From assembly GCA_032718475.1 (NCBI GenBank), contig JAUCBJ010004893.1:186001-250000 (forward strand): a DNA stretch of 64,000 nt. The letters run 5' to 3'. The stretch is from Nemertoderma westbladi (lineage: Eukaryota > Animalia > Xenacoelomorpha). Below are positions 996 through 57,739 of this stretch, piece by piece. A program made the translations under genes and the position numbers. How positions within the stretch are numbered: the first letter of the stretch is position 1; the number at the start of each line of letters is the position of its first letter. The notes below the pieces were generated by a model. The model saw nothing but the letters and a program-made list of their open reading frames with translations. It was not told where the DNA came from and made no database searches.

Positions 996-1788
996 ACTTT
1001 ACTTTACAGTCCCTGGGATATGGGTCGGTTTATTTGTTTACTTTACAGTCCCTGTGATATGGGTCGGTTTATTTGTTTACTTTACTTTATCCCTGGGATA
1101 TGGGTCGGTTTATTTGTTTACTTTACTTTACAGTCCCTGGGATATGGGTCGGTTTATTTGTTTACTTTACAGTCCCTGGGATATGGGTCGGTTTATTTGT
1201 TTACTTTACTTTATCCCTGGGATATGGGTCGGTTTATTTGTTTACTTTATTTTACAGTCCCTGGGATATGGGTCGGTTTATTTGTTTACTTTACTTTACA
1301 GTCCCTGGGATATGGGTCGGTTTATTTGTTTACTTTACAGTCCCTGGGATATGGGTCGGTTTATTTGTTTACTTTACTTTACAGTCCCTGGGATATGGGT
1401 CGGTTTATTTTTTTACTTTACTTTATCCCTGGGATATGGGTCGGTTTATTTGTTTACTTTACTTTACAATCCGTAGGATATGGGTCGGTTTATTTGTTTA
1501 CTTTACTTTATCCCTGGGATATGGGTCGGTTTATTTGTTTACTTTATTTTACAGTCCCTGGGATATGGGTCGGTTTATTTGTTTACTTTACTTTACAGTC
1601 CCTGGGATATGGGTCGGTTTATTTGTTTACTTTACAGTCCCTGGGATATGGGTCGGTTTATTTGTTTACTTTACTTTACAGTCCCTGGGATATGGGTCGG
1701 TTTATTTGTTTACTTTACAGTCCCTGTGATATGGGTCGGTTTATTTGATTACTTTACTTTACAGTCCCTGGGATATGGGTCGGTTTAT
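996..1788 (+). repeat. Tandem array, 39/41/44-bp units (TTTACTTTACAG|TCCCTGGGATATGGGTCGGTTTATTTG), about 19 copies; amplified ERI1 3' splice site
   Basis: Unit read directly. The last unit runs into the ERI1 exon at 1765. 14 units keep CAG; 5 lack the AG. Confidence 0.95.
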
Positions 1789-1925
1789 GAGAACGCAATG
1801 CGAATTGTCCAGAATCCCGCTGCCCCGATACGCAACTAAGTGGATTAATTTGCGTAAAACCTTCCGTAATTTCTACAAATCTTCCGAAACTAACCCAAAT
1901 ATATCTGTGATGCTGGCCAGTTTCG
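1765..1925 (+). CDS. ERI1: ERI1-family 3'-5' exoribonuclease (DEDDh), penultimate exon (upstream exons not in window)
   Basis: Boundaries tttacag|T ... TTC G|gttagt. Translates xPWDMGRFMRTQCELSRIPLPRYATKWINLRKTFRNFYK...MLASFG, matching the ERI1 pattern WDM..F...QC..S....P.....WIN.RK. Confidence 0.9.
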
Positions 1926-2432
1926 GTTAGTTGTTGATCATAATAATACTTTAAGTAAGTCATTAAACATAAAACATAACTGTAGGATGTGACTTGCGCT
2001 GTTGTTATAACAAACTAGGCTACTGCTATTAACTAATCAACGCACATTATTATCATCTGTAAAGTACATAAATAAATACATTAATTATAATTTTTATAAA
2101 TATACTTTTCTTCAGTTGTATCCATTTTATTATATTAGCGCTAAAAGATATTTTGAGTTGGTTACTGACATTTATTTTGGGGTATTTATGGCCCAGACAG
2201 TAAGAATTTCAGCTATCCTATGCTTCGGGCTACCCTTAGTATATAATGGTACGGCGCCATGGATACAAACCGCAATCGTAGCAATGGATACAAATCGGAA
2301 TTCTGTCGGGACTCTACGCAATCAGAATTAGTCGCCCTTGTGATGAGTAGCGTTCAGGTTTTCACTTTTCGGTCGAAATTGTGTTTATACATTTATCGTG
2401 TTACGTTACTTTTATCTCTATTTATTTAGTGT

Positions 2433-4108
2433 TATATAACGGTTATTTCCATCTTATATAACGGTTATTTCCATCTTATATAACGGTTATTTCCATCTTA
2501 TATAACGGTTATTTCCATCTTATATAACGGTTATTTCCATCTTATATAACGGTTATTTCCATCTTATATAACGGTTATTTCCATCTTATATAACGGTTAT
2601 TTCCATCTTATATAACGGTTATTTCCATCTTATATAACGGTTATTTCCATCTTATATAACGGTTATTTCCATCTTATATAACGGTTATTTCCATCTTATA
2701 TAACGGTTATTTCCATCTTATATAACGGTTATTTCCATCTTATATAACGGTTATTTCCATCTTATATAACGGTTATTTCCATCTTATATAACGGTTATTT
2801 CCATCTTATATAACGGTTATTTCCATCTTATATAACGGTTATTTCCATCTTATATAACGGTTATTTCCATCTTATATAACGGTTATTTCCATCTTATATA
2901 ACGGTTATTTCCATCTTATATAACGGTTATTTCCATCTTATATAACGGTTATTTCCATCTTATATAACGGTTATTTCCATCTTATATAACGGTTATTTCC
3001 ATCTTATATAACGGTTATTTCCATCTTATATAACGGTTATTTCCATCTTATATAACGGTTATTTCCATCTTATATAACGGTTATTTCCATCTTATATAAC
3101 GGTTATTTCCATCTTATATAACGGTTATTTCCATCTTATATAACGGTTATTTCCATCTTATATAACGGTTATTTCCATCTTATATAACGGTTATTTCCAT
3201 CTTATATAACGGTTATTTTCATCTTATATAACGGTTATTTCCATCTTATATAACGGTTATTTCCATCTTATATAACGGTTATTTCCATCTTATATAACGG
3301 TTATTTCCATCTTATATAACGGTTATTTCCATCTTATATAACGGTTATTTCCATCTTATATAACGGTTATTTCCATCTTATATAACGGTTATTTCCATCT
3401 TATATAACGGATATTTCCATCTTATATAACGGTTATTTCCATCTTATATAACGGTTATTTCCATCTTATATAACGGTTATTTCCATCTTATATAACGGTT
3501 ATTTCCATCTTATATAACGGTTATTTTCATCTTATATAACGGTTATTTCCATCTTATATAACGGTTATTTCCATCTTATATAACGGTTATTTCCATCTTA
3601 TATAACGGTTATTTCCATCTTATATAACGGTTATTTCCATCTTATATAACGGTTATTTCCATCTTATATAACGGTTATTTCCATCTTATATAACGGTTAT
3701 TTCCATCTTATATAACGGTTATTTCCATCTTATAAAACGGTTATTTCTATCTTATATAACGGTTATTTCCATCTTATATAACGGTTATTTCCATCTTATA
3801 TAACGGTTATTTCCATCTTATATAACGGTTATTTCCATCTTATATAACGGTTATTTCCATCTTATAATACGGTTATTTCCATCTTATATAACGGTTATTT
3901 CCATCTTACATAACAGTTATTTCCATCTTATATAACGGTTATTTCCATCTTATATAACGGTTATTTCCATCTTATATAACGGTTATTTCCATCTTATATA
4001 ATGGTTATTTCCATCTTATGAAACGGTTATTTCCATCTTATATAACGGTTATTTCCATCTTATATAATGGTTATTTCCATCTTATGAAACGGTTATTTCC
4101 ATCTTATA
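2433..4108. repeat. 22-bp tandem array (TATAACGGTTATTTCCATCTTA)n, about 76 copies, in the last ERI1 intron
   Basis: Period 22, nearly homogeneous; variants cluster at the right end. Confidence 0.97.
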
Positions 4109-4473
4109 TGACCAGTACAGATACAAAATCGTTTATTGTTTTGCTTAGATTCAGGCCAATTGTTGCCTGGTAACCTGGTATTCCTCACATGGGGGTAAAC
4201 TGCAAAGTTAAATTATGTGCTATTGCTTTCTTAGAGTAACGTTACACTGTAACCGACTTTATTACCCCCCACATTAGTGTGAGGAATCGATTTCTGTCTC
4301 TATCAACCCAACACTTCACTCCCATTAATATATTATAATTTTCCCCGATAATATATAACCAGTTTTCATTGCATTAATTGTCTTTATAATTTGACTACCG
4401 GTACCGCTAGAGTCACATCATTTATTTATTTTTACTGAAAATAAACTACCAATTCGATTTGTATTCCCACAAG

Positions 4474-4625
4474 GTATGGAATTTGAAGGCAACGAGCATA
4501 GCGGGTTGGACGATTCTAGAAATATCGCGAGAATTCTGGTCCGAATGTTAGAGGACGGAGCCGTTCCGGACATTAACCAACGCCAGATCTACAAACAATC
4601 CGCAACAAAGGGAAATAAAGTATGA
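4474..4625 (+). CDS. ERI1: ERI1 terminal exon
   Basis: cacaag|GT ATG GAA, phase-compatible with the exon ending at 1925. GMEFEGNEHSGLDDSRNIARILVRMLEDG...KV* contains the ExoIII H-x4-D motif (HSGLDD). Confidence 0.92.
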
Positions 4626-4882
4626 GTTATATAAACCTTAGTGGAGATACCATGTCAGCGTAATCTAGCAACTGTATTACAGAATATCGACTACGAATGA
4701 AGTAAATAAAGTGTTCGAAAGGAATTTACCTGAAGATAATGTTTTTCGCGTAAAATCTATGTAACAGAAATTCCACCGACGTTAATGGTTACGTCGCGTT
4801 TCGGCAACTGTCACGTTTAGGCAACTCAAATTCGCGTTTCGCCAACTGAACAATTACGTTTCACCAACTGCTATAGTTGTGT

Positions 4883-5929
4883 TTAGGCAACTCGTAGTTG
4901 CATTTCGGCAACTCGTAGTTGCATTTCGGCAACTCGTAGTTGCATTTCGGCAACTCGTAGTTGCATTTCGGCAACTCGTAGTTGCATTTCGGCAACTCGT
5001 AGTTGCATTTCGGCTAACTGAAGTTGCATTTCGGCAACTCGTAGTTGCATTTCGGCTAACTGAAGTTGCATTTCGGCAACTCGTAGTTGCATTTCGGCAA
5101 CTCGTAGTTGCATTTCGGCAACTCGTAGTTGCATTTCGGCAACTCGTAGTTGCATTTCGGCAACTCGTAGTTGCATTTCGGCAACTCGTAGTTGCATTTC
5201 GGCAACTCGTAGTTGCCTTTCGGCAACTCGTAGTTGCATTTCGGCAAATCGTAGTTGCATTTCGGCAACTCGTAGTTGCATTTCGGCAACTCGTAGTTGC
5301 ATTTCGGCAACTCGTAGTTGCATTTCGGCAACTCGTAGTTGCATTTCGGCAACTCGTAGTTGCATTTCGGCTAACTGAAGTTGCATTTCGGCAACTCGTA
5401 GTTGCATTTCGGCTAACTGAAGTTGCATTTCGGCAACTCGTAGTTGCATTTCGGCAACTCGTAGTTGCATTTCGGCAACTCGTAGTTGCATTTCGGCAAC
5501 TCGTAGTTGCATTTCGGCAACTCGTAGTTGCATTTCGGCAACTCGTAGTTGCATTTCGGCAACTCGTAGTTGCATTTCGGCAACTCGTAGTTGCCTTTCG
5601 GCAACTCGTAGTTGCATTTCGGCAACTCGTAGTTGCATTTCGGCAACTCGTAGTTGCATTTCGGCAACTCGTAGTTGCATTTCGGCAACTCGTAGTTGCA
5701 TTTCGGCAACTCGTAGTTGCCTTTCGGCAACTCGTAGTTGCATTTCGGCAACTCGTAGTTGCATTTCGGCAACTCGTAGTTGCATTTCGGCAACTCGTAG
5801 TTGCATTTCGGCAACTCGTAGTTGCATTTCGGCAACTCGTAGTTGCATTTCGGCAACTCGTAGTTGCATTTCGGCAACTCGTAGTTGCATTTCGGCAACT
5901 CGTAGTTGCATTTCGGCAACTCGTAGTTG
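4883..5929. repeat. 21-bp tandem array (TTTCGGCAACTCGTAGTTGCA)n, about 50 copies, left arm of the foldback
   Basis: Read directly; explains the FRQLVVA / MQLRVAE / PKCNYEL ORFs. Confidence 0.97.
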
Positions 5930-6619
5930 TCTACTCTATCTACTGAGTCGAACGCGAGTTGAAAAACCAAAATTGAAATGGGGAATAGATAAACAAAGCC
6001 AGGATTTCACTTTTCGGTCGACTTTTTATTGGAATTTTATATGTGAAGATTTTTTATTTTTTTTTAATTTATCTTTATTATGTGTTTTATAGCGCTTATT
6101 TCTGTCTTATAACCTGTACATATACTAATTCGTTTATTGTTTTGGTTAGATTTAGCCCTTCTGTAACCTGTGGTTTTGGTGAAAACCTGGTATTCTTCAC
6201 ATGGGGGTAACTGCCAAGTGAAATATAACGGCAGAAAGTCTGGTATTCTTCACATGGGCCTTGAATTATAAGATCAGGTTGAATTAATAGACTTATAATA
6301 TATCGAATAATATGTAGACATTATATGGAATTATAACATCAGTTTCTATATAACTCGAAGTAGTGTTGGAGTAGGCGTGGGTAAAATAATGTAGAATGAA
6401 AATGAATAATGGGAAACGTAATGAGGCAAAGGTAATAAATAATACTGATTCGCTCTACCCTATGTTGATACAATGCGATGGTGACGTTGAGATTCCATCA
6501 TCTCTATACTGTAGACTCTATACAGTATCCAGTTGGCCTTTGTTTACGAGTTGTCGAACGCATCTATCAGTTTGCCTAAGCGCATCCTGTTAACAGTTGC
6601 CGGAACGCGACTATGAGTT

Positions 6620-7452
6620 TCCGAAACGCGGCTCTAACGCTAGTATCAGTTGCCGAAACGCGGCTCTAACGCTAGTATCAGTTGCCAAACGCGGCTCTAA
6701 CGCTAGTATCAGTTGCCGAAACGCGGCTCTAACGCTAGTATCAGTTGCCGAAACGCGGCTCTAACGCTAGTGTCAGTTTCCGAAACGCGGCTCTAACGCT
6801 AGTATCAGTTGCCGAAACGCGGCTCTAACGCTAGTATCAGTTGCCGAAACGCGGCTCTAACGCTAGTATCAGTTGCCGAAACGCGGCTCTAACGCTAGTA
6901 TCAGTTGCCGAAACGCGGCTCTAACGCTACTATCAGTTGCCGAAACGCGGCTCTAACGCTAGTATCAGTTGCCGAAACGCGGCTCTAACTCTAGTATCAG
7001 TTGCCGAAACGCGGCTCTAACGCTAGTATCAGTTGCCGAAACGCGGCTCTAACGCTAGTATCAGTTGCCGAAACGCGGCTCTAACTCTTGCCGAAACGCG
7101 GCTCTAACGCTACTATCAGTTGCCGAAACGCGGCTCTAACGCTAGTATCAGTTGCCGAAACGCGGCTCTAACGCTAGTATCAGTTACCGAAACGCGGCTC
7201 TAACGCTAGTATCAGTTGCCGAAACGCGGCTCTAACGCTAGTATCAGTTGCCGAAACGCGGCTCTAACGCTAGTATCAGTTGCCGAAACGCGGCTCTAAC
7301 GCTAGTATCAGTTGCCGAAACGCGGCTCTAATGCTAGTATCAGTTGCCGAAACGCGGCTCTAACGCTAGTATCAGTTGCCGAAACGCGGCTCTAATGCTA
7401 GTATCAGTTGCCGAAACGCGGCTCTAACGCTAGTATCAGTTGCCGAAACGCG
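6620..7452. repeat. 32-bp tandem array (GCCGAAACGCGGCTCTAACGCTAGTATCAGTT)n, about 26 copies, right arm of the foldback
   Basis: Read directly; carries AGTTGCCGAAA, the reverse complement of the left-arm core. Confidence 0.95.
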
Positions 7453-9512: not shown

Positions 9513-10794
9513 TAGGGATGCGACAGAGCTAAAATTTCATCCGGAGCCGGAGCCCGGAGGTTCTCCGGGTTACATTATGAGCTCCGGCCGGAGACGGAGC
9601 CGGAGGTTTGGTGATTGATAATTCAAGTGTATTTTTATAGTAGACATAGACATGTATGTGTTCATGATACAGGGGGGGGGGGGATTTGATGCAAATTCTT
9701 ACTCAATTATCAATTAAGGAAAATGAGCAGTTTACAGTCGCATTCTAGTTGCATTGCTATTCTATTCTAATCAAAACAATAAACTATATTCAATAGAACA
9801 GGTTACAGTTTTATTATTGGGAGTAATCAGCCGATATTTGCGTCGATTTTCTCCTGGATAGGAATGCATTCCGTCCAAAGACTCCCTCATCTGGTGTTCA
9901 ATGGGCTAAAATATATTGTAATGTTTTAGACTTTTCAGTTCACACTCATTACACAAACTCTGTTATATTTATTTCTTACGACTAGACTATCAGTAACTTT
10001 GGTTTGTTGTCAAGTTATTATCGACGCTATTTTTATGGGACATTGTGTAATTAATTTCCAGGAGTTGGTGCAGTTTTCATTATATTGTCATTGATAAACG
10101 ATAAAACATGTACCACCTACCTTACGTACGTAGGCTGGCATAAACCGGATATCTAAAATAATATTAGTAATTTGGATATATCACAACTGTTTAGAGGGTC
10201 CTCGGGCTCTATTTACATTATTGAATCACGAACTGAAATACAATCTCCGCACATAAATATTGTATAACTATTAAAATTATTATTACATAAATTTAATAAA
10301 CATATAATTCTATAATATGAATTAGTTCTAGAATTATAAGTATTTAAACTGATTACTTTATACAAATGAATGAACAGTACCAGCCTGTTGGGGATGGGGT
10401 GGGGGGGGGGGGGGGGGTCAGTGGAATGGGGGTTCTAGAACGAAACGATAGTACATGTATTTAAGATTTTTTAATTAGGGAAGAATATCAATTGAATTAA
10501 CTGAATCATTTCAATATTTTTGTTCAAACATTTAAACAATTTCACAATGGGGGTGGGGGGATATCAGGAAACTTAAAAAAAACTAGCTGTAAATTACTTA
10601 ATGAGTTATTATGTTAATTACTATGATATTTACATTATTCATACATCAGAAAAACTTATTATTTTAATTCGAATTTAAACAATATAAGCTCCGGATTGGC
10701 TCCGGGTTAATTTGCCCGGAGCCGGAACCAGAGCCGGAACTAGAAACTTGGCCCGGAGCTCCGGAGCCGGAGCCGGAGCTATGTCGCATCCGTA
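9513..10794. mobile_element. hAT-type MITE inserted in the first unit of the 33-bp array
   Basis: TIRs TAGGGATGCGACAGAGCT / AGCTATGTCGCATCCGTA (16/18); 8-bp TSD GTGTATAC (9505-9512, 10795-10802); subterminal CCGGAG repeats at both ends. Confidence 0.9.
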
Positions 10795-13700
10795 GTGTAT
10801 ACACCCATGTAGCTGGCTTACATTGCATTGTATACACCCATGTAGCTGGCTCACATTGCAGTGTATACAGCCCTGTAGCTGGCTCACATTGCAATGTATA
10901 CACCCCTGTAGCTGGCTCACATTGCAGTGTATACACCCATGTAGCTGGCTCACATTGCAGTGTATACACCCCTGTAGCTGGCTCACATTGCAGTGTATAC
11001 ACCAATGTAGCTGGCTCACATTGCAGTGTATACACCAATGTAGCTGGCTCACATTGCAGTGTATACACCCATGTAGCTGGCTCACATTACAGTGTATACA
11101 CCCATGTAGCTGGCTCACATTGCAGTGTATACACCCCTGTAGCTGGCTCACATTGCAGTGTATACACGCATGTAGCTGGCTCACATTGCAGTGTATACAC
11201 CCCTGTAGCTGGCTCACATTGCAGTGTATACACCCCTGTAGCTGGCTCACATTGCAGTGTATACACCCATGTAGCTGGCTCACATTGCAGTGTATACACC
11301 CATGTAGCTAGCTCACATTGCAGTGTATACACCCCTGTAGCTGGCTCACATTGCAGTGTATACACCCCTGTAGCTGGCTCACATTGCATTGTATACACCA
11401 ATGTAGCTGGCTCACATTGCAATGTATACACCCATGTAGCTGGCTCACATTGCAGTGTATACACCCTTGTAGCTGGCTCACATTGCAGTGTATACACCAA
11501 TGTAGCTGGCTCACATTGCAGTGTATACACCCATGTAGCTGGCTCACATTGCAGTGTATACACCCATGTAGCTGGCTCACATTGCAGTGTATACACCCCT
11601 GTAGCTGGCTCACATTGCAGTGTATACACCCATGTAGCTGGCTCACATTTCAGTGTATACACCAATGTACCTGGCTCACATTGTAGTGTATAGTATACAC
11701 CCCTGTAGCTGGCTCACATTGCAGTGTATACACCAATGTAGCTGGCTCACATTGCAGTGTATACACCCATGTAGCTGGCTCACATTGCAGTGTATACACC
11801 CCTGTAGCTGACTCACATTGCAGTGTATACACCCACGTAGCTGGCTCACATTGCAGTGTATACACCCATGTAGCTGGCTCACATTGCAGTGTATAGTATA
11901 CACCCCTGTAGCTGGCTCACATTGCAGTGTATACACCCCTGTAGCTGGCTCACATTGCAGTGTATACACCAATGTAGCTGGCTCACATTGCAGTGTATAG
12001 TATACACCCCTGATATACACCCCTATACACCCGCCAGTTCCCAAGAAGGGCAACCTAACACTCTATGGTTCTTTTCGGGGAATCTCATTGATCTCGATTG
12101 CTGCAAAGCTATACAATAGGATTCTATTAAATCGCATCAGGGATCCCATTGAGAGACTGCTCCGTGGAAATCAGAATGGGTTCCGTAAAGGTCGTGGGAC
12201 CATGGAGCCCATTTTGGCACTTAGAAGGATAATTGAAGAGTTATCAAAAAAGAAAGACAGGCATCTGGCTGTTATCTTTGTTGACTTCTTCAAGGCCTTT
12301 GATTCAGTCTCTCGCTCACGTATGTTCAGCATACTTTCATTATATGGGATTCCTGATGAAATTATTGCAGCAATCAGATCAGTATATGATGGTTCGACAA
12401 CATTTGTGTCTACTGTTGACGGTGACACAGAACCATTTGAAGTGTTATGGGGCGTCCTCCAATGAGACACACTTGCACCATTCTTGTTCATTATTGTGGT
12501 TGACTATGTTATACGCATGTCCTTAGATCATTATAATGATGATGGGGTGATGATAACTCCACCTACTGGCTCCAGAAGTCGAGGAAATCCTCCCAAGTAC
12601 CTAACTGATCTAGACTTTGCTGATGACTTAGGAGTACTCTCAGAATCATTAGACGGAGCCCAACGGCTCCTCAGCTCATTAGAACATGCTGCTTCTAGTG
12701 TTGGTCTTTTTATTAACTCCAGAAAGACCAAAATTCTGACAGTTAACTTTGAAAGTCCTCAGCAAGTCTCTGATCGGATGAGCATAAGCTCAAAGGATGG
12801 TATGCTTGAGCACGTGGACGACTTCTGTTACCTGGGATCATGGATCCGGAAGTCAGGTGAGGACCTTCGAATACGTAAGGGAAAGGCATGGGCAGCCTTG
12901 AATAGGCTTTCCAGGATTTGGAAGTCACCGAGAATTAATCGGAAACTTAAGGTCCGATTATTTAGAGCAGCAGTGGTTCCAGTACTCCTTTACGGGAGTC
13001 CATGCTGGGCTCTAACTGCTGAGGACACCAAATCTCTGGATGGCACATTCACAAGAATGCTACGCCGGGTTCATTGTATCAAGTACAATGCACACATCTC
13101 CAACCAGACACTATATAACATTGGAGGTGTCTCATTGGTTCCCCCAAGCTTGACACTAGAACAAAATCGCCTCCGCTTTGCAGGACATTGCTTTCGCCGT
13201 GAGGACCAGCCAGTGCATAATCTTGTACTTTGGCAGCCTCATGGAGTGTATAAGCATGGTGGACAGCCCATGACTTTCTTGAGACGCATCTTAAAGGACA
13301 CTGGCCTTAAAGATGCGGATGATCTAGCAAATGTCATGGGTGATAGGGAATTGTGGCGGTGCAATTTTGTTGACAAGCCGGCACAGCATTCTTAAAAATG
13401 CAGCTGAAATGCAGCATGCCGATCCTTGTTGTATACACCCCTGTAGCTGGCTCACATTGCAGTGTATACACCCCTGTAGCTGGCTCACATTGTAGTGTAT
13501 ACACCCATGTAGCTGGCTCACATTGCAGTGTATACACCCCTGTAGCTGGCTCACATTGCAGTGTATACACCAATGTAGCTGGCTCACATTACAGTGTATA
13601 GTATACACCCCTGTAGCTGGCTCACATTGCAGTGTATACACCCATGTAGCTGGCTCACATTGCAGTGTATACACCCATGTAGCTGGCTAACATTGTAGTG

Positions 13701-17722: not shown

Positions 17723-18575
17723 AGAACACTTTTTGTTTTATATTATTATTCATTATATTACTCATTCTTATTCATTTAGTAATTTAATAATAGTCGTTTA
17801 TAATACTGTAGTGTGTAATTAAATAGCAAAATCTGAAAAATAGGTTTAATGTTGGAATTTATAGCGGCATATTAACCATTATTCTTTCTTTCGTGCGATA
17901 TGAGATTGATTTGACAACATTCATTTGAAATTATATATATATTTTTTTTTGTTTTGTTTATTATTCTAAATCTACTTACTTTAATTATTTTTTGTGCTAG
18001 AGTGTGTGTAGTTAGGTTTGTACTGTGCAGCAATTGTAAGGAAGGTTATTGTTTCATGTACGATAATAATAATAATAATAATAATAATTACTAAGCAATA
18101 TTCCGACAGCAATAGGGTTGGTGCGCGAAAAAATTGTTGGGCTAGAAACAATCGAATAAGGGGTAACAAGGTACCCTGAATCGAGTGGCGGGGTGTTTTT
18201 TTTGTAAAACCACGTGGAAACGGACCACGTGGATTAAGTAAGCGGGGGGGGGGGGGGGGGGGGGGGGGAGCTAATTTTGAAAATCGGCTGTGATTTGAGT
18301 CTACGTGTGATTGAAATAATCGATCTATGTGATTGAGATAATCGACTACTCCGATAATTTCTTATCTTGTTTTCTATGGAGGGTGATTTTAGATCCATTT
18401 AAATACACATTTAATCTCAATCATTTCACACGTGGCTTATATCAAATGAAAGCGGAGAGTCTTGCGCGTCTATTACCACTACAATTAATTAAATTCATGG
18501 CGATAAGCATTGATTAAATGAATAAATAAACTCGTAGATTGCCTGACTGGTATGCAAGAACTCAACCACTTACGG

Positions 18576-19148
18576 CTTGAGCATGTGGATGACTTCTGTT
18601 ACCTGGGATCATGGATCCGGAAGTCAGGTGAGGACCTTCGAATACGTAAGGGAAAGGCATGGGCAGCCTTGAATAGGCTTTCCAGGATTTGGAAGTCACC
18701 AAGAATTAATCGGAAACTTAAGGTCCGATTATTTAGAGCAGCTGTAGTTCCAGTACTCCTCTACGGGAGTCCATGCTGGGCTCTAACTGCTGAGGACACC
18801 AAATCTCTGGATGGCACATTCACAAGGATGCTACGCCGGGTTCATTGTGTCAAGTACAATGCACACATCTCCAACCAGACACTATATAACATTGGAGGTG
18901 TCTCATTGGTTCCCCCAAGCTTGACACTAGAACAAAATCGCCTCCGCTTTGCAGGACATTGCTTTCGACGTGAGGACCAGCCAGTGCATAATCTTGTACT
19001 TTGGCAGCCTCATGGAGTGAATAAGCATGGTGGACAGCCCATGACTTTCTTGAGACGCATCTTAAAGGACACTGGCCTTGAAGATCTTGATGTAGCAAAT
19101 GTCATGGGTGATAGGGAGTTGTGGCGGTGCAATTTTGTCGATAAGTAG
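18576..19148 (+). mobile_element. RTE copy 2, 3' fragment
   Basis: Near-identical to 12805-13378; followed by TAGTAAGTAAG. Confidence 0.92.
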
Positions 19149-20600: not shown

Positions 20601-20732
20601 TCTTCAAATTCCGTATAACTTTTGAGATTAAATATATTATTAATCTTCTCTCTCATTCTATTATTGACCTCGCAAATCCCTATTGATATTTTTCCGAGCT
20701 ATTATGACTAATCTGTGTTATCTAATCTTATG

Positions 20733-21039
20733 TTGTTTTGTCTGCTTCTCAGAAATATAACCTATTAATGATTAGTAAAGGAATTCCGATATAGATATAG
20801 TGCTACCCTGTAGGGAAATCATCAAATATCATCCATCATTCATTGCTCAATTAGGCCTATAGCAGCTATACGCGATCACGTATAATAGCAACTAACAGGT
20901 CGATAAGAATTATAATTAAACTCGCTAATCTGGTACGAGTGGGTGTAAACAACTTCTTGGAAGATATCAGATGAAATTCCGCCAACTCCGTGACTTATAG
21001 ATCAACAACACCCACGACGTTAACGAATCAATGTCTCAC
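20733..21039 (+). repeat. Approximately 305-bp dispersed repeat, copy A (inverted partner at 29545-29852)
   Basis: Reverse complement of 29545-29852 with about 2 mismatches by eye. Confidence 0.9.
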
Positions 21040-21084
21040 GAACAACTAAAATTCGGTCACATATAATTAGCGACAAACAGAGAG

Positions 21085-23970: not shown

Positions 23971-24094
23971 GTAATTTATATGGATGGGTATTATTTTAAG
24001 ATTATTGGAATATAATATTTTAATTATTATATTAAATTTTTGAAAGATCTTACCACTATCAATTATTCCTTGGAACTAAATTTGACAAGGCCGA

Positions 24095-28465: not shown

Positions 28466-28505
28466 TAGGTGTTGGGTAAATAATGTTCTACTTAATTTCT
28501 TTCAG

Positions 28506-28742: not shown

Positions 28743-29544
28743 TTTATGTGTAAACGCAAGGCCGAAAACCACAGCCGTTAACGACAAATTAACGTTAAAT
28801 ACAATAATGTTTTAGATGGAATTGTCTTACCTCTGTAACCTGTTCTTTTCCCTCAATTAGTAATTAACATTAATATAACTCTCTAACTCCAATAGTGGCT
28901 GTCGGTATAGCGTAGGGTAGAGTTTTTTATATGTCGTACTGATTGAATAGTTAAATAAATTTAAAACAAAAATCGTCAGTTCTTAAAAACAAACATTTAC
29001 AAACTGTGTTACATTTTTGGAATCCTTGCATGGTCAGCTTTCTAACAATACCAACAAATCACTATAAGGTTGAAGAATAACTGCGGTGTAACTGGTGCAA
29101 TATCGACGGAGACACCTTTTCTAAACACTTGTAGCTAAAGAATGAAAGCGAAAATAAAACTTCTGGCTCATCCAGTCAGTGGTCGGGAGGTGATATTATT
29201 TGTTTCAAATTTCATGCAATCTCATTAAGATTTGTAGAAAAATTTGGGGAAGGGAGGGGTTTGGGGGCACCGCACGCACAGTTACTCTGGAGTCCCGAAT
29301 AGACGGGGTGGGTGGAAAATTTTTATTATGCTAGTAGTCGGGGTGGTGGAATAAACGTGGTGGGTGGAAAATTTTGAAAACTTAAGGCCTACAGTATACT
29401 TACTTAACATACTTATTGGCATACAGGTACAGTGCGATTAATTACACACCAATAAATTAATAACTTTCACTATAAGATACTATTTTGAGTACCGGTACTA
29501 TTATTTGGTAACATGTAACCGCCCGGACGATACCTGTGCTGTGT

Positions 29545-45317: not shown

Positions 45318-46537
45318 TATCAGTTTGTATTGTTAATAATTAATGAGGTTAACAACAAATTAATAAGTTACTTAGTTACATTTACATTATTAGTTACACT
45401 ATAAAATAAAATACATGCAGGTGTAAGTCAGAGCACCGTTCACTGAGCTGGCCATTACTGTCAGATGACATACCTCAGATACCTCCACCCCCACACCCAC
45501 AAACTTTAATAAATAAATATTGTGATTTTTTAGATATTGATCCTAATCTGCGATAGAAAATAATCAGTAGTGAATGAACCCCGATAAAACATCACAATCA
45601 TAAGTTTAACACAAATTAATAAATCATTTTTATCTCTTGAGTTATATAATAAGATAGCTTTCCCAAGGAATAACAACACGCGTCGATTGGTCGGGTCGAT
45701 TATTGGCAACTTCCTGTGATAGGTCGGAATAGTGAGTGCATGTGATACCACCTACCTGAATTCTTGGATAAGTATACGAACTATGATACCAAATCATACG
45801 TGCCATACGACTAATTAATTTCAATTTTTAATTAACTGTGATTGATGGAATATAAAGGTTTTCTATTTAATTTACGGGTTGAACTCAGAAGGAAGATAAA
45901 TCCTTGAACGTGGCTTTAGGCGCGTGCCATATATACAATTACGTAAACATAATTAGTAAACATAACCGAGGCCACTAGCGGTGTGGGGGTGGTGGGTGGA
46001 TAGCAATGGGTGGACATACAACAACCCAATTAGTGGGCGTTCATTGACAAACCTGACCCAACCCGCAGCAAGCTTAATTCGCAGAAATGCACCGGCTTTG
46101 TCAACTATAAGTCGAGCAACCCATAATCTAGCCTCAACAAAAATGTATTTATTTGTAGAAATGTGGACAATACTACATTTAATTAATAATAATTATTAAT
46201 ATCACAAATTATAATATTTCAGTGGATGTAAACATGATATCCGCATCAAATCAATAACCTGATGATAAAAATACAACACATAATAAAATTGTCACAATTA
46301 TCTTGTAATTCATTACTTTCCATTTGTCATAAGAACTGCACAGCGCAAACAATAAAAGCCAAATAAATACAATATTGTAATCAATACACAAACAATATAA
46401 CTTTATTTGATGTCAAACAAACAATTTATTTTGAACACAAATTTCGGTTAGTTTTCTCTCTCTGAGGCTTTACATGTACTGAATAAATATGTTACTAAAT
46501 ACGAATCAATAATTTTACGTGAATTCAATTTTTGTAC

Positions 46538-47322
46538 TATCTCTATCAGGCACCCATGACGCTATGGGAGCTCGCTCTCTATCTCTATCAGGTACCCATG
46601 ACGCTATGGGAGCTCGCTCTCTATCTGTATCAGGTACCCATGATGCTATGGGAGCTCGCTCTCTATCTGTATCAGGTACCCATGACGCTATGGGAGCTCG
46701 CTCTCTATCTGTATCAGGTACCCATGATGCTATGGGAGCTCGCTCTCTATCTCTATCAGGCACCCATGACGCTATGGGAGCTCGCTCTCTATCTGTATCA
46801 GGTACCCATGATGCTATGGGAGCTCGCTCTCTATCTCTATCAGGCACCCATGACGCTATGGGAGCTCGCTCTCTATCTGTATCAGGCACCCATGACGCTA
46901 TGGGAGCTCGCTCTCTATCTGTATCAGGCACCCATGACGCTATGGGAGCTCGCTCTCTATCTCTATCAGGCACCCATGACGCTATGGGAGCTCGCTCTCT
47001 ATCTGTATCAGGCACCCATGACGCTATGGGAGCTCGCTCTCTATCTCTATCAGGTACCCATGACGCTATGGGAGCTCGCTCTCTATCTGTATCAGGCACC
47101 CATGACGCTATGGGAGCTCGCTCTCTATCTCTATCAGGTACCCATGACGCTATGGGAGCTCGCTCTCTATCTCTATCAGGCACCCATGACGCTATGGGAG
47201 CTCGCTCTCTATCTGTATCAGGTACCCATGATGCTATGGGAGCTCGCTCTCTATCTCTATCAGGCACCCATGACGCTATGGGAGCTCGCTCTCTATCTGT
47301 ATCAGGTACCCATGATGCTATG
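46538..47322. repeat. 42-bp tandem array (CTATCTSTATCAGGYACCCATGAYGCTATGGGAGCTCGCTCT)n, about 18-19 copies
   Basis: Read directly. Confidence 0.96.
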
Positions 47323-48136: not shown

Positions 48137-48228
48137 CTAGGACGTTTCGAAGCCCATGTAATTCAATAAACTAAAGATTATGAGGCAAAAACAGGACAGT
48201 TTGTAACTCATCCTCCTCGGTTCACATC
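48137..48228 (-). CDS. Otoancorin/stereocilin-like gene, terminal exon (GPI-anchor-type signal)
   Basis: ttttcag|GA TGT... gives (S)GCEPRRMSYKLSCFCLIIFSLLNYMGFETS*: small residues, spacer, hydrophobic tail. Confidence 0.7.
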
Positions 48229-48536: not shown

Positions 48537-48675
48537 CTGAAGTTCTTTTTTCTTTACCGAACATCGCATACGCGTCCTCTGGAATGTCAGTTTCGTGATG
48601 ATATTGAACGATCAACAAGTTTCTCAACTGTTCGTAGGTTAATTCCCGACGTTGTCGATTGTGGACTGCAGCGGC
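48537..48675 (-). CDS. Otoancorin/stereocilin-like gene, exon
   Basis: ttccag|AAAVHNRQRRELTYEQLRNLL...KRTS G|gtgagg; the QAAAV...Q...L..EQ...L pattern is typical of the family C-terminus. Confidence 0.8.
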
Positions 48676-48773: not shown

Positions 48774-48916
48774 CTGTGAAGGAGTTAATTGAGAGAATCG
48801 TTGATCCGGGAACTGGCCCATAATCACTCCGTCAATGGCGGGAATTCCGTACTCAGCGGAAACGAACTCGAAATCGGACCTCGGAACCCTGTTGAGTTCG
48901 CTCAGCGTCAGACCAC
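48774..48916 (-). CDS. Otoancorin/stereocilin-like gene, exon
   Basis: atccag|(G)GLTLSELNRVP...FSQLTPSQ|gtaatt; phase 1 to 0, matching both neighbours. Confidence 0.82.
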
Positions 48917-49179
48917 CTGGATAGGAAATACAAACAATTCAAATAATATCTGGCGTAGGTTAAGTTAAGTACAATCTCACCCACATACTAACGTACGAAA
49001 GGATATAAGGCCTGATCACAAATAGTGTTGGTAATTCAACAAAACAAACACATTATTTTCCATACAAATCTTAATGAGATGATGGGGGCGGTGTCTCAGA
49101 ATTTTGAGATACGATATTCCATGACAGATTAAATCTGGGTCCATAGCGATCATATCAAAATATAGGTAACTGTCAGATA

Positions 49180-49968
49180 CTACTACTACTATTGACATCA
49201 ATGTTGTATAGAGTCTGATTGGAGATGTGTGCATTGTACTTGACACAATGAACCCGGTGTAGCATTCTTGTGAAAGTGACATCCAGAGATTTGGTATCCT
49301 CAGCAGTTAGAGCCCAGCATTGACTCCCATATATGAGTACAGGTACCACTGCTGCTCTAAATAATCGAACCTTAAGGTTCCGTTTTATTCTATGAGATTT
49401 CCAAATCCTGGACAGACTATTTAACACTGCCCATGCCTTCCCCTTACGTATCCGATTCACCAGACTTTCTGATCGGTGATCCCAAGTAGCAGAAGTCATC
49501 CACGTGCTCAAGCAAGCCTTCCCTAGAGCTTATGCCCTTACGATCAGGCATTTCTTGAGGGCTGTCTAGGTTGACTGTCATGATTTTGGTCTTTTTGTAG
49601 TTTACAAAAAAACCAAGACTAGAAGCAACCTGTTCCAATGAGCAGAGGAGCCATTGGGCTCCCTCTAGTGATACCGAGAGTATTCCTAAGTCATCAACAA
49701 AGTGAAGATACCATCACCCCATCATCATTATGATGGTCTAAGGACATGCGTAGAACATTATGAACCACAATTACGAATAAGAATGGTGCAAGTGTGTCAT
49801 CCTGAAGATAGATAGATAAACTCTTTTATTATCGATATGGTGAATATATATATAAATTGCACCAGGCAGTCGATTTAAAATAATTATGTTGTATAGCTTT
49901 GCAGCAATCGACATCAACGAGATTCCTCGAAAAGATCCATGGGTTGCCCTTCTTTGGGGCTGGGACCA
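49180..49968 (-). mobile_element. RTE copy 4 (diverged), internally deleted, 3'-truncated, followed by (TAG)4
   Basis: Minus strand: PAPKKGN...FRGISLMSIAAKLYN [gap] QDDTLAPFLF...HVDDFCYLGS...RLFRAAVVPVLIYGSQCWALT...QTLYNI. Confidence 0.9.
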
Positions 49969-49998: not shown

Positions 49999-52900
49999 GT
50001 GTCGGATACTCAGCTATGACTCACCCACTACGGCTCCTATCTCAGCCAATATCGGATACTCAGCTATGACTCACCCACTACGGCTCCTATCTCAGCCAGT
50101 GTCGGATACTCAGCTATGACTCACCCACTACGGCTCCTATCTCAGCCAATATCGGATACTCAGCTATGACTCACCCACTACGGCTCCTATCTCAGCCAAT
50201 ATCGGATACTCAGCTATGACTCACCCACTACGGCTCCTATCTCAGCCAATATCGGATACTCAGCTATGACTCACCCACTACGGCTCCTATCTCAGCCAGT
50301 GTCGGATACTCAGCTATGACTCACCCACTGCGGCTCCTATCTCAGCCAATATCGGATACTCAGCTATGACTCACCCACTACGGCTCCTATCTCAGCCAGT
50401 GTCGGATACTCAGCTATGACTCACCCACTGCGGCTCCTATCTCAGCCAATATCGGATACTCAGCTATGACTCACCCACTACGGCTCCTATCTCAGCCAGT
50501 GTCGGATACTCAGCTATGACTCACCCACTGCGGCTCCTATCTCAGCCAATATCGGATACTCAGCTATGACTCACCCACTACGGCTCCTATCTCAGCCAGT
50601 GTCGGATACTCAGCTATGACTCACCCACTGCGGCTCCTATCTCAGCCAATATCGGATACTCAGCTATGACTCACCCACTACGGCTCCTATCTCAGCCAAT
50701 GTCGGATACTCAGCTATGACTCACCCACTGCGGCTCCTATCTCAGCCAATATCGGATACTCAGCTATGACTCACCCACTACGGCTCCTATCTCAGCCAAT
50801 ATCGGATACTCAGCTATGACTCACCCACTACGGCTCCTATCTCAGCCAATATCGGATACTCAGCTATGACTCACCCACTGCGGCTCCTATCTCAGCCAAT
50901 ATCGGATACTCAGCTATGACTCACCCACTGCGGCTCCTATCTCAGCCAATATCGGATACTCAGCTATGACTCACCCACTGCGGCTCCTATCTCAGCCAGT
51001 GTCGGATACTCAGCTATGACTCACCCACTACGGCTCCTATCTCAGCTGAGTGTCGGATACTCAGCTATGACTCACCCACTACGGCTCCTATCTCAGCTGA
51101 GTGTCGGATACTCAGCTATGACTCACCCACTGCGGCTCCTATCTCAGCCAATATCGGATACTCAGCTATGACTCACCCACTGCGGCTCCTATCTCAGCCA
51201 ATATCGGATACTCAGCTATGACTCACCCACTGCGGCTCCTATCTCAGCCAGTGTCGGATACTCAGCTATGACTCACCCACTACGGCTCCTATCTCAGCCA
51301 ATATCGGATACTCAGCTATGACTCACCCACTGCGGCTCCTATCTCAGCCAATATCGGATACTCAGCTATGACTCACCCACTGCGGCTCCTATCTCAGCCA
51401 ATATCGGATACTCAGCTATGACTCACCCACTGCGGCTCCTATCTCAGCCAATATCGGATACTCAGCTATGACTCACCCACTACGGCTCCTATCTTAGCCA
51501 GTGTCGGATACTCAGCTATGACTCACCCACTGCGGCTCCTATCTCAGCCAATATCGGATACTCAGCTATGACTCACCCACTGCGGCTCCTATCTCAGCCA
51601 ATATCGGATACTCAGCTATGACTCACCCACTACGGCTCCTATCTCAGCCAATATCGGATACTCAGCTATGACTCACCCACTACGGCTCCTATCTTAGCCA
51701 GTGTCGGATACTCAGCTATGACTCACCCACTGCGGCTCCTATCTCAGCCAATATCGGATACTCAGCTATGACTCACCCACTGCGGCTCCTATCTCAGCCA
51801 ATGTCGGATACTCAGCTATGACTCACCCACTACGGCTCCTATCTCAGCCAATATCGGATACTCAGCTATGACTCACCCACTACGGCTCCTATCTCAGCCA
51901 ATATCGGATACTCAGCTATGACTCACCCACTGCGGCTCCTATCTCAGCCAGTGTCGGATACTCAGCTATGACTCACCCACTGCGGCTCCTATCTCAGCCA
52001 GTGTCGGATACTCAGCTATGACTCACCCACTACGGCTCCTATCTCAGCCAATATCGGATACTCAGCTATGACTCACCCACTACGGCTCCTATCTCAGCCA
52101 ATATCGGATACTCAGCTATGACTCACCCACTGCGGCTCCTATCTCAGCCAGTGTCGGATACTCAGCTATGACTCACCCACTGCGGCTCCTATCTCAGCCA
52201 GTGTCGGATACTCAGCTATGACTCACCCACTACGGCTCCTATCTCAGCCAATATCGGATACTCAGCTATGACTCACCCACTGCGGCTCCTATCTCAGCCA
52301 GTGTCGGATACTCAGCTATGACTCACCCACTGCGGCTCCTATCTCAGCCAGTGTCGGATACTCAGCTATGACTCACCCACTACGGCTCCTATCTCAGCCA
52401 ATATCGGATACTCAGCTATGACTCACCCACTACGGCTCCTATCTCAGCCAGTGTCGGATACTCAGCTATGACTCACCCACTACGGCTCCTATCTCAGCCA
52501 GTGTCGGATACTCAGCTATGACTCACCCACTACGGCTCCTATCTCAGCCAATATCGGATACTCAGCTATGACTCACCCACTACCGCTCCTATCTCAGCCA
52601 ATATCGGATACTCAGCTATGACTCACCCACTACCGCTCCTATCTCAGCCAATGTCGGATACTCAGCTATGACTCACCCACTACGGCTCCTATCTCAGCCA
52701 ATATCGGATACTCAGCTATGACTCACCCACTACGGCTCCTATCTCAGCCAATGTCGGATACTCAGCTATGACTCACCCACTACGGCTCCTATCTCAGCCA
52801 ATATCGGATACTCAGCTATGACTCACCCACTACGGCTCCTATCTCAGCCAATATCGGATACTCAGCTATGACTCACCCACTACCGCTCCTATCTCAGCCA

Positions 52901-55900
52901 ATGTCGGATACTCAGCTATGACTCACCCACTACGGCTCCTATCTCAGCCAATGTCGGATACTCAGCTATGACTCACCCACTACGGCTCCTATCTCAGCCA
53001 ATGTCGGATACTCAGCTATGACTCACCCACTACGGCTCCTATCTCAGCCAGTGTCGGATACTCAGCTATGACTCACCCACTACGGCTCCTATCTCAGCCA
53101 GTGTCGGATACTCAGCTATGACTCACCCACTACGGCTCCTATCTCAGCCAATATCGGATACTCAGCTATGACTCACCCACTACGGCTCCTATCTCAGCCA
53201 ATATCGGATACTCAGCTATGACTCACCCACTACCGCTCCTATCTCAGCCAATGTCGGATACTCAGCTATGACTCACCCACTACGGCTCCTATCTCAGCCA
53301 GTGTCGGATACTCAGCTATGACTCACCCACTACGGCTCCTATCTCAGCCAATATCGGATACTCAGCTATGACTCACCCACTACGGCTCCTATCTCAGCCA
53401 ATATCGGATACTCAGCTATGACTCACCCACTACGGCTCCTATCTCAGCCAATATCGGATACTCAGCTATGACTCACCCACTACGGCTCCTATCTCAGCCA
53501 GTGTCGGATACTCAGCTATGACTCACCCACTACGGCTCCTATCTCAGCCAATATCGGATACTCAGCTATGACTCACCCACTACGGCTCCTATCTCAGCCA
53601 GTGTCGGATACTCAGCTATGACTCACCCACTACGGCTCCTATCTCAGCCAGTGTCGGATACTCAGCTATGACTCACCCACTACGGCTCCTATCTCAGCCA
53701 GTGTCGGATACTCAGCTATGACTCACCCACTACGGCTCCTATCTCAGCCAATGTCGGATACTCAGCTATGACTCACCCACTGCGGCTCCTATCTCAGCCA
53801 ATATCGGATACTCAGCTATGACTCACCCACTACGGCTCCTATCTCAGCCAATATCGGATACTCAGCTATGACTCACCCACTACGGCTCCTATCTCAGCCA
53901 ATGTCGGATACTCAGCTATGACTCACCCACTGCGGCTCCTATCTCAGCCAATGTCGGATACTCAGCTATGACTCACCCACTACGGCTCCTATCTCAGCCA
54001 GTGTCGGATACTCAGCTATGACTCACCCACTACGGCTCCTATCTCAGCCAGTGTCGGATACTCAGCTATGACTCACCCACTACGGCTCCTATCTCAGCCA
54101 ATGTCGGATACTCAGCTATGACTCACCCACTACGGCTCCTATCTCAGCCAGTGTCGGATACTCAGCTATGACTCACCCACTACGGCTCCTATCTCAGCCA
54201 GTGTCGGATACTCAGCTATGACTCACCCACTACGGCTCCTATCTCAGCCAGTGTCGGATACTCAGCTATGACTCACCCACTACGGCTCCTATCTCAGCCA
54301 GTGTCGGATACTCAGCTATGACTCACCCACTACGGCTCCTATCTCAGCCAGTGTCGGATACTCAGCTATGACTCACCCACTGCGGCTCCTATCTCAGCCA
54401 ATATCGGATACTCAGCTATGACTCACCCACTACGGCTCCTATCTCAGCCAATATCGGATACTCAGCTATGACTCACCCACTACGGCTCCTATCTCAGCCA
54501 GTGTCGGATACTCAGCTATGACTCACCCACTGCGGCTCCTATCTCAGCCAATATCGGATACTCAGCTATGACTCACCCACTACGGCTCCTATCTCAGCCA
54601 GTGTCGGATACTCAGCTATGACTCACCCACTACGGCTCCTATCTCAGCCAATATCGGATACTCAGCTATGACTCACCCACTACGGCTCCTATCTCAGCCA
54701 GTGTCGGATACTCAGCTATGACTCACCCACTACGGCTCCTATCTCAGCCAATATCGGATACTCAGCTATGACTCACCCACTACGGCTCCTATCTCAGCCA
54801 ATATCGGATACTCAGCTATGACTCACCCACTACGGCTCCTATCTCAGCCAGTGTCGGATACTCAGCTATGACTCACCCACTACGGCTCCTATCTCAGCCA
54901 ATGTCGGATACTCAGCTATGACTCACCCACTACGGCTCCTATCTCAGCCAGTGTCGGATACTCAGCTATGACTCACCCACTACGGCTCCTATCTCAGCCA
55001 GTGTCGGATACTCAGCTATGACTCACCCACTACGGCTCCTATCTCAGCCAGTGTCGGATACTCAGCTATGACTCACCCACTGCGGCTCCTATCTCAGCCA
55101 ATATCGGATACTCAGCTATGACTCACCCACTACGGCTCCTATCTCAGCCAGTGTCGGATACTCAGCTATGACTCACCCACTACGGCTCCTATCTCAGCCA
55201 ATGTCGGATACTCAGCTATGACTCACCCACTACGGCTCCTATCTCAGCCAGTGTCGGATACTCAGCTATGACTCACCCACTACGGCTCCTATCTCAGCCG
55301 AGTGTCGGATACTCAGCTATGACTCACCCACTACGGCTCCTATCTCAGCCAGTGTCGGATACTCAGCTATGACTCACCCACTGCGGCTCCTATCTCAGCC
55401 AATATCGGATACTCAGCTATGACTCACCCACTACGGCTCCTATCTCAGCCAGTGTCGGATACTCAGCTATGACTCACCCACTACGGCTCCTATCTCAGCC
55501 AGTGTCGGATACTCAGCTATGACTCACCCACTACGGCTCCTATCTCAGCCAGTGTCGGATACTCAGCTATGACTCACCCACTGCGGCTCCTATCTCAGCC
55601 AATATCGGATACTCAGCTATGACTCACCCACTGCGGCTCCTATCTCAGCCAGTGTCGGATACTCAGCTAAGACTCACCCACTACGGCTACTATCTCAGCC
55701 AATGTCGGATACTCAGCTATGACTCACCCACTACGGCTCCTATCTCAGCCAGTGTCGGATACTCAGCTATGACTCACCCACTACGGCTCCTATCTCAGCC
55801 AGTGTCGGATACTCAGCTATGACTCACCCACTGCGGCTCCTATCTCAGCCAATATCGGATACTCAGCTATGACTCACCCACTACGGCTCCTATCTCAGCC

Positions 55901-56164
55901 AATATCGGATACTCAGCTATGACTCACCCACTACGGCTCCTATCTCAGCCAATATCGGATACTCAGCTATGACTCACCCACTACGGCTCCTATCTCAGCC
56001 AGTGTCGGATACTCAGCTATGACTCACCCACTGCGGCTCCTATCTCAGCCAATATCGGATACTCAGCTATGACTCACCCACTACGGCTACTATCTCAGCC
56101 AATGTCGGATACTCAGCTATGACTCACCCACTACGGCTCCTATCTCAGCCAGTGTCGGATACTC
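49999..56164 (-). repeat. 50-bp tandem array, about 123 copies; amplified exon end plus 5' splice site (GAGTATCCGACACTGGCTGAGATAGGAGCCGTAGTGG|GTGAGTCATAGCT)
   Basis: The first unit on the minus strand is the last 37 nt of exon 56128-56267 plus 13 intronic nt. Confidence 0.97.
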
Positions 56165-56267
56165 CCAATTATAGGGACTCCCATAGACAACCTCAGCAAG
56201 AGACTTCAATGATTGGAGGACTTCGTAAGGACAATTTCGAATCATCCCAACCTTTCTGGCAACCAAT
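56128..56267 (-). CDS. Otoancorin/stereocilin-like gene, exon (absent from the ORF track)
   Basis: ctacag|(R)LVARKVGMIRNCPYEVLQSLKSLAEVVYGSPYNWEYPTLAEIGAVV G|gtgagt; supplies exactly the phase 2 to 1 link needed between the flanking exons. Confidence 0.88.
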
Positions 56268-56403
56268 CTGTAGACAATGGTGACAATTTAATTACAAATT
56301 TATAAAGTTAACTTGACTAAATAAACACTGTTTTAGGAGTTATATATATTAGAGATAAATAAAACCTATTATATAAAACACCAACACTAGTTATTCTACC
56401 AAC

Positions 56404-56699
56404 CTATACTCCTCCGCAGGTATGAGTTTTATATCAGCGGCCGATAAACCGCATATAATTTCCCCCATCGCAGCCAAATGATAACTTTTCAGTTTATCAA
56501 CTGTCACTTTTTGGTCTTTGAGGAATTTCTCTGCCATAAGTCTGGTATGCGTATCAGACCATTCGTAACTCGAGATATATTCAACCACGTCCAGATCTGA
56601 TAAGTCCAAATTACTGAGATCATTGGGAGATGCCACCGTTAACAGAGGCCCCAACTCGCCTATGTGCTGGGGTGTCCACTTTTCAACCCGACCCCACTC
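56404..56699 (-). CDS. Otoancorin/stereocilin-like gene, exon
   Basis: ttttttag|EWGRVEKWTPQHIGELGPLL...LAAMGEIICGLSAADIKLIPAEEY R|gttggt; family motifs G....W.......LG and L..hG..hCGL....I..I. Confidence 0.88.
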
Positions 56700-56834
56700 C
56701 TAAAAAAAACAATTCCCTAGAAGGCCTCCCAATAGACACAAAATGTTCGACCCGAATTCAGTTTATCAGATATGATTCTATATTGGTTATAAATGATATT
56801 AATAAGAAGATAAGGGGATCGCCTCCCCTTAGCC

Positions 56835-57739
56835 CCACCGCACCATCCCGTTGTAGATTAGCCACTAACCTGCACTGCGTTCTCTAACCCCTCCATCCCG
56901 TTGTAGATTAGCCACTAACCTGCACTGCGTTCTCTAACCCCACCATCCCGTTGTAGATTAGCCACTAACCTGCACTGCGTTCTCTAACCCCTCCATCCCG
57001 TTGTAGATTAGCCACTAACCTGCACTGCGTTCTCTAACCCCACCATCCCGTTGTAGATTAGCCACTAACCTGCACTGCGTTCTCTAACCCCTCCATCCCG
57101 TTGTAGATTAGCCACTAACCTGCACTGCGTTCTCTAACCCCTCCATCCCGTTGTAGATTAGCCACTAACCTGCACTGCGTTCTCTAACCCCTCCATCCCG
57201 TTGTAGATTAGCCACTAACCTGCACTGCGTTCTCTAACCCCACCATCCCGTTGTAGATTAGCCACTAACCTGCACTGCGTTCTCTAACCCCTCCATCCCG
57301 TTGTAGATTAGCCACTAACCTGCACTGCGTTCTCCCCACCGCACCATCCCGTTGTAGATTAGCCACTAACCTGCACTGCGTTCTCTAACCCCTCCATCCC
57401 GTTGTAGATTAGCCACTAACCTGCACTGCGTTCTCTAACCCCACCATCCCGTTGTAGATTAGCCACTAACCTGCACTGCGTTCTCTAACCCCTCCATCCC
57501 GTTGTAGATTAGCCACTAACCTGCACTGCGTTCTCTAACCCCACCATCCCGTTGTAGATTAGCCACTAACCTGCACTGCGTTCTCTAACCCCACCATCCC
57601 GTTGTAGATTAGCCACTAACCTGCACTGCGTTCTCTAACCCCTCCATCCCGTTGTAGATTAGCCACTAACCTGCACTGCGTTCTCCCCACCGCACCATCC
57701 CGTTGTAGATTAGCCACTAACCTGCACAGCGTTCTCTAA
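56835..57739 (-). repeat. 50/51-bp tandem array, 18 copies; amplified exon end plus 5' splice site (TTAGAGAACGCAGTGCAG|GTTAGTGGCTAATCTACAACGGGATGG...)
   Basis: The first unit on the minus strand is the end of exon 57722-58129. Confidence 0.97.

Follow-up and report, generated by a model that had tools for sequence, protein, structure and literature searches.

Three of the exon-intron junctions in a 64,000-nucleotide (nt) stretch of Nemertoderma westbladi DNA (contig JAUCBJ010004893.1, positions 186,001 to 250,000; hereafter the window) have been multiplied in tandem: an acceptor of ERI1 in 19 copies, and two donors of an otoancorin-like gene in 18 and about 123 copies. These arrays are a real, large example of a known structure, and targeting of junctions is not established. 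We think that they are probably locus-specific minisatellites of the kind named 'mirages' in lancelets, that is, the outcome of ordinary tandem-repeat turnover with the exon-proximal splice site still in use. Established directly are the anatomy of the arrays, the identity of their units to exon sequence, reading frames that are intact, and the premature stops to which the use of other copies would lead. All three arrays had been pointed out in a first-pass annotation of the window, and they are present both by Tandem Repeats Finder (TRF) and by unit-by-unit reading. Below, the exon-proximal copy is called the real site and the remaining copies decoys.

Anatomy and authenticity of the arrays

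The relevant features at the ERI1 locus are the following.

995..1788, plus strand: ERI1 acceptor array (TRF period 44, 18.9 copies; 19 units of 39-44 nt)
1745..1749, plus strand: TTGAT, a branch-point-like YTRAY motif of putative function, with its A at -17; present only upstream of the real ERI1 acceptor
1765..1925, plus strand: penultimate coding exon of ERI1, starting within the last unit (human ERI1 residues 233-281, E 1.3e-13)
4474..4625, plus strand: last coding exon of ERI1 (human ERI1 residues 286-322, E 6e-8)

The two exons are colinear with human ERI1, and the donor that pairs with the array acceptor lies outside the window. A unit comprises the last 15 nt of the intron, the first 24 nt of the exon and a linker of 5 nt. 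Reading unit by unit, we found the ACAG/TCCC junction in 14 of the 19, the CAG being lost in four and replaced by CAA in one. Homology supports the exon boundaries that the first-pass annotation had proposed. Of the 18 ERI1 units other than the real acceptor, however, 13 count as decoys with an intact AG (14 intact units when the real acceptor is included). The ERI1 units also carry private changes.

The otoancorin-like gene lies on the opposite strand.

57722..58020, minus strand: exon A (donor 57722/57721 firm; acceptor 58020 inferred from the start of the profile match)
56843..57740, minus strand: donor array A (TRF period 50, 17.9 copies; 18 copies of CAG/GTTAGT in units of 50-51 nt)
56404..56699, minus strand: exon B (homology model)
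56128..56267, minus strand: exon C (homology model)
50000..56164, minus strand: donor array C (TRF period 50, 123.2 copies; 123 copies of TGG/GTGAGT in a 50-nt unit)
48774..48916, minus strand: exon D (homology model)
48537..48675, minus strand: exon E (homology model)
48137..48228, minus strand: last coding exon F, with a hydrophobic C-terminus; its junction is spanned by two homolog alignments only

All six exons have GT-AG ends and join into one open frame, and the spliced model matches 63 of 65 homologs. Among the alignments that span a given junction, those ungapped within 5 amino acids of it number 51 of 58 for A-B, 56 of 59 for B-C, 55 of 55 for C-D, 45 of 53 for D-E and 2 of 2 for E-F. 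It is the first (A-B) and the third (C-D) of these junctions that lie under arrays A and C. The start of exon A has alternatives in further in-frame AGs up to 58155, with 58020 the most likely. On a profile built from 29 full-length homologs the exons cover positions 756-1080 of 1110. Nothing in the window matches the first 750 profile positions, so that the gene probably extends past position 64000. A putative signal-peptide exon at 58948-59010, part of a 426-amino-acid model, was rejected, as a stop is encountered when the true GT is used.

In array A the unit combines 14-19 nt of exon end with 31-37 nt of intron start, and in array C 37 nt with 13 nt. The donor 9-mers are invariant, in 18 of 18 units of array A and 123 of 123 of array C. 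The real copy is unique at ERI1 and in array A, where position -8 sets the real exon end apart from that of each of the 17 decoys, yet in array C the exon end is the same as the real one in 37 of the 119 decoys of 50 nt. When the arrays are collapsed, intron A-B measures 170 nt, and intron C-D about 310 nt without its array and a 786-nt piece of a retroelement.

Units of all three arrays are exact copies of the local junction, and none occurs elsewhere in the window. Among the 122 spacers of array C there are 13 variants, whose order is irregular and locally clustered, the longest repeated block being six units. Such an order is unlike simple assembly duplication. Taken with the private changes in ERI1 units and the confinement of units to their own loci, it argues for real arrays born at their loci; the copy numbers given here are those of the assembly. 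The variant order and the divergent end copies at ERI1 and in array A would fit concerted turnover. When metagenomes were scanned for a 21-nt piece of array C, a single locus came up (L001, 65% GC, a match of 22 nt only), which we regard as chance.

A further array may belong to the same gene.

59886..64000, minus strand: 64/79-nt higher-order array that continues past the end of the window and includes 49 GG/GT or AG/GT donor-like motifs

It probably lies in an upstream intron of the otoancorin-like gene. Its three minus frames gave no match to the otoancorin profile, and from 61745 it contains an exact 696-nt match at a lag of 1000. It is possible that this is a fourth junction array, whose real exon would lie past the window, or a local assembly duplication. 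The long exact match, together with the missing N-terminal positions, might encourage the view that the arrays or their lengths are assembly artefacts, or that the otoancorin-like gene is dead and its decoys irrelevant. However, the N-terminus may sit past the window end, the six exons still make one open frame, and the variants of array C and the private changes of ERI1 units speak against an artefact. We consider this explanation very improbable.

Choice among identical splice sites

In all three arrays the protein is colinear with its homologs only from the exon-proximal site. The first-pass annotation had stressed that the arrays run into the intron and that only the exon-proximal copy restores the protein. 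This is what we observe, but it follows from the geometry of any junction duplication: when a piece spanning a junction is repeated, one site keeps the whole exon and the rest fall in the intron.

A premature stop more than 55 nt upstream of the last junction is the customary yardstick for nonsense-mediated decay (NMD). Every intact decoy would produce such a stop (17 of 17 in array A, 122 of 122 in array C and 13 of 13 at ERI1; 152 in total). Decoy use would be damaging, and for the genes to work, most splicing would have to go through the exon-proximal site. From the sequence, this site is likely to be the one used in normal splicing, and the decoys are probably either ignored or purged by NMD. 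A search of sequencing runs with positions 56160-58260 listed no RNA data set, which does not count for or against this. The earlier wording that the spliceosome must ignore the decoys is too strong, since in human 6-16 and CBS the two nearest decoys are spliced too.

How might such a situation arise and be tolerated? A small initial tandem duplication would occur, as for the other arrays of a genome saturated with minisatellites, and slippage or unequal exchange would expand and homogenise the units. Duplicates wholly in exons would mostly be purged; a junction duplicate would survive by leaving one intact site with the whole exon. Co-transcriptional, first-come use of donors and exon definition would then pick the site. 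The exon portion of the donor decoys is just 14-37 nt long, and they lack a pyrimidine tract upstream with which to define an exon of their own. Their short exon portion could aid the choice, as could, at ERI1, a private branch-point motif, and NMD would clear the transcripts that leak.

The ERI1 motif deserves some caution. YTRAY at -14 to -45 is found in none of the 13 intact decoys, so TTGAT possibly marks the real acceptor. However, our branch-point scan found YTRAY in this interval in just four of the nine real acceptors of the window, meaning that it is not required in this genome, which weakens the lead. The distinction also amounts to one base, and end copies often differ. Distance is a weak guide as well: the nearest decoys would yield exons of 205 and 244 nt instead of the real 161 nt, and all three are ordinary exon sizes.

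Several points speak against the explanation that we prefer. The introns of this genome are short, which hints at intron definition. Under that mode the last decoy donor would be preferred, and exon-proximal choice is therefore not automatic. In array A the last decoy donor and the acceptor rebuild an ancestral intron of 170 nt, the size of unexpanded introns here, and pure intron definition would pick this wrong end. Local RNA folding gives the real sites no accessibility advantage; the real donor of array A has an unpaired value of 0.09, compared to 0.22-0.34 for the next two decoys. As far as the excerpts available to us go, splicing evidence in the literature spans 3-26 copies and not 123. 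Finally, selection should remove junction arrays and not add them, while the overlap of arrays with junctions is above every null that we tried (see below).

If decoys are sometimes used, the arrays could have a function: a share of transcripts would go through decoys to NMD, and gene dose would be tuned by copy number. The premature stops from all intact decoys and the invariant donor 9-mers are compatible with this, as is the use of the two nearest decoys in human 6-16 and CBS (in the excerpt of PMC1557585). Yet any intron-derived repeat is expected to contain stops, and homogenisation alone predicts donor invariance. The AG has been lost in 5 of the 18 ERI1 decoys, implying no pressure to keep it there, and ERI1 and the otoancorin-like gene have no evident common regulation. 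A function of this sort seems to us very improbable.

Junction overlap, chance and the rest of the window

Local amplification is pervasive within the window. TRF reports 16 non-overlapping arrays with at least 14 copies, one of them a coding repeat, and they occupy 31,802 of 64,000 bases (49.7%). Most of them span no junction. The first-pass annotation saw about 16 coding junctions, which agrees with our 15 firm ones plus one acceptor of uncertain position. It offered two readings, genome-wide local amplification or a process that favours junctions, and the window bears out pervasive local amplification within its own bounds but does not establish the preference.

For the comparison with chance, each array was collapsed to one unit (leaving 32,810 nt), and a unit of the same length was placed so that it was not wholly coding; an overlap was counted when the unit covered a junction and reached at least 6 nt to either side of it. 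Under a uniform null with 15 junctions and 14 arrays taken as independent (leaving out the coding array and the second 33-bp array), 0.18 overlaps are expected, or 0.23 when matched for GC content, versus 3 seen (P of at least three, 0.0007 and 0.0013). All uniform variants tried gave 0.18-0.24 expected and P 0.0007-0.0015; the variant with 17 junctions includes the rejected signal-peptide junction. Within the window, therefore, the overlap is above uniform chance (3 versus about 0.2, P about 0.001). The excess shrinks when gene structure is considered. With the five arrays inside gene spans, 0.47 are expected (P 0.007). For a unit of 44-50 nt landing in an intron of 150 nt, the chance of covering a junction is 34-39%, and with introns at ancestral size, 5-6 genic arrays give 0.6-0.9 expected and P 0.013-0.028. 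In this last null, intron A-B was entered as 143 nt and not as the collapsed 170, which is slightly generous to the null, and the 786 nt of retroelement were removed from C-D. The genic nulls together thus span P 0.007-0.03. Moreover, the window was selected for junction arrays out of a very large scan, so the excess that persists cannot carry a claim of targeting. An array anchored on an exon edge may not be deletable together with its flanks and would form a larger share of arrays even if nothing were targeted. Most likely, three things combine to give the excess: ancestral introns were short, arrays anchored on an exon edge last longer, and the window was selected.

It could be argued instead that the mutational process itself favours exon edges, with breaks or slippage at junctions (polymerase pausing, R-loops, nucleosome edges) seeding duplications and splice choice proceeding as outlined above. 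Three of the five arrays inside firm gene spans lie on junctions, P is below 0.03 in every null, the array at 59886-64000 is a fourth candidate, and two lancelet PGBD5 repeats adjoin 5' splice sites (in the part of PMC3902484 available). However, this is a single window, selected for showing the feature; the ancestral-intron-size nulls take away most of the excess, and persistence of anchored arrays predicts the same excess. The array ends have no common signature either (a 5-nt linker at ERI1, an overlap of about 1 nt in array A and of 14 nt in array C). We regard such a process as quite unlikely. A bolder version, which we find unlikely too, is that junction-biased amplification across the genome has converted a sizeable part of the splice sites into arrays with up to more than 100 perfect decoys. 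As the last decoy donor rebuilds the short ancestral intron exactly, each array would then force a switch from intron definition to strict first-come use or exon definition, and real acceptors might be re-marked by new private branch points, such as TTGAT at ERI1. If true, splice-site choice would be titrated naturally across hundreds of such loci, which would differ stepwise in copy number and unit length.

Besides the last two coding exons of ERI1 and the six otoancorin-like exons, the window contains COX11, carnosine N-methyltransferase (CARNMT1) and a long repetitive open frame. A Pfam run on nine single exons returned COX11 as the sole name, and word-index protein searches with single exons gave no match; matches came from an exhaustive search. 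Array-free intron lengths are 98-308 nt in five of seven introns. COX11 has two exons, and 96% (4352 nt) of its single intron (23971-28505, 4535 nt) is one 31-nt array, which ends about 42 nt short of the acceptor; without it the intron would be about 200 nt. An inverted 315-nt pair (20730-21044 and 29540-29854), 98% alike, flanks COX11 on both sides. CARNMT1 (30795-31931, minus strand) is intronless and 40-47% identical to its 120 best matches, from many animal phyla; this divergence suggests that the host sits on a long branch and that the searched collection has no close relative of it. The frame at 42741-45317 (minus strand) is a single open frame of 859 amino acids with a hydrophobic N-terminus and about 19 acidic repeats of 26 amino acids, possibly a secreted repeat protein or a peptide precursor; its best Atlas score, 0.81, is a lead only.

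Other repeats can be listed briefly. Four fragments that we take, from their motifs, to be reverse-transcriptase-like (12020-13420, 18560-19140, 36380-37770 and 49178-49963) are 76-86% alike; two lie within minisatellite arrays, and two start at a near-identical point directly beside an array. At 4793-5929 and 6550-7452, a 32-nt array matches, on the opposite strand, the flank of a 21-nt array, and the pair may be two arms of a foldback-like element. At 9517-10793, an element with short inverted ends is inserted past the first copy of a 33-nt repeat family. Three frames of the 42-nt array at 46537-47322 are open, two on the plus strand and one on the minus strand, and no adjoining exon was recognised.

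Whatever the origin of the junction arrays, they extend a known oddity to another animal and to 123 copies. They are ready-made tests of the choice among identical sites, since in a genome with short introns, intron definition and exon definition predict opposite array ends. They can also mislead gene predictors and short-read mapping. If a genome-wide junction bias were confirmed, it would point to a mutational or persistence mechanism tied to exon edges.

Relation to known systems

The first-pass annotation compared the arrays to isolated junction repeats. The closest precedent is a named, recurrent class, and the choice of the 5'-most donor has already been dissected experimentally in F7. 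Our literature search, mostly limited to papers outside subscription, found no genome-wide test of junction-array enrichment and no array of about 120 copies. Statements on PMC3087553, PMC3902484 and PMC1557585 in this section refer to the excerpts available.

Recursive splice sites were considered and rejected. These are AG/GT ratchet points in which a polypyrimidine tract and AG come right before GT. Array A has CAG/GT but with a purine-rich stretch upstream, and array C has TGG/GT.

Intron gain by tandem duplication (Rogers 1989, Zhuo 2007, Gao and Lynch 2009, as cited in PMC3087553) also begins with a tandem duplication that includes splice signals. Here, in contrast, the duplicates enlarge existing introns, and the units have no acceptor-donor pair with which to excise a new one. 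A new intron was rejected as a candidate, since the other intron end lies outside the arrays and the gene model is colinear with homologs with no extra intron.

In humans, repeats with a variable number of tandem copies (VNTRs) are known at several junctions. According to PMC1557585, the 37-bp repeat of F7 IVS7 is present in 5-9 copies; mutant constructs show that the identical downstream donors are functional yet unused, only the 5'-most being used. CBS IVS13 (15-20 copies) and 6-16 (25 pseudo-sites) use the two nearest decoys too, and the decoys of the LAMIN B2 and PDGF junction VNTRs are unused. As here, the real donor is in the first unit and identical donors follow; the F7 donor is also TGG/GTG-like, and the 5'-most site wins, as it is predicted to do here. 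The human cases, however, are isolated donor arrays in a genome with long introns, whereas here an acceptor is amplified as well, three cases lie within 57 kb, there are about five times more copies, and ancestral introns are short.

The likeness is closest with lancelets. PMC3087553 describes the globin genes BflGb6 and BflGb9 with tandem duplications of exon-intron boundaries, named mirages after Adh3. They occur at both boundary types; the AG or GT is kept in many of the copies, though not in all, their origin is unclear, and by reverse transcription PCR they do not interfere with splicing. PGBD5 and troponin C were added to the list of lancelet mirage genes in PMC3902484. The arrays described here likewise consist of units that span the boundary of the host exon, with one acceptor and two donors amplified, and many but not all decoys keep the signal (13 of 18 at ERI1, 17 of 17 in array A and 122 of 122 in array C). 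Several affected genes per genome and, at ERI1 and in array A, divergent end copies are further common features, and unit sizes here (40-55 nt) are inside the 10-160 bp reported for lancelet mirages. The host is not close to lancelets, CARNMT1 being 45-46% identical to Branchiostoma, as it is to all other animals. Copy numbers differ, 2-7 in the lancelet globin and PGBD5 genes and up to 123 here, and so does the evidence: normal mRNA has been observed for lancelet mirages, while the present arrays are known from DNA.

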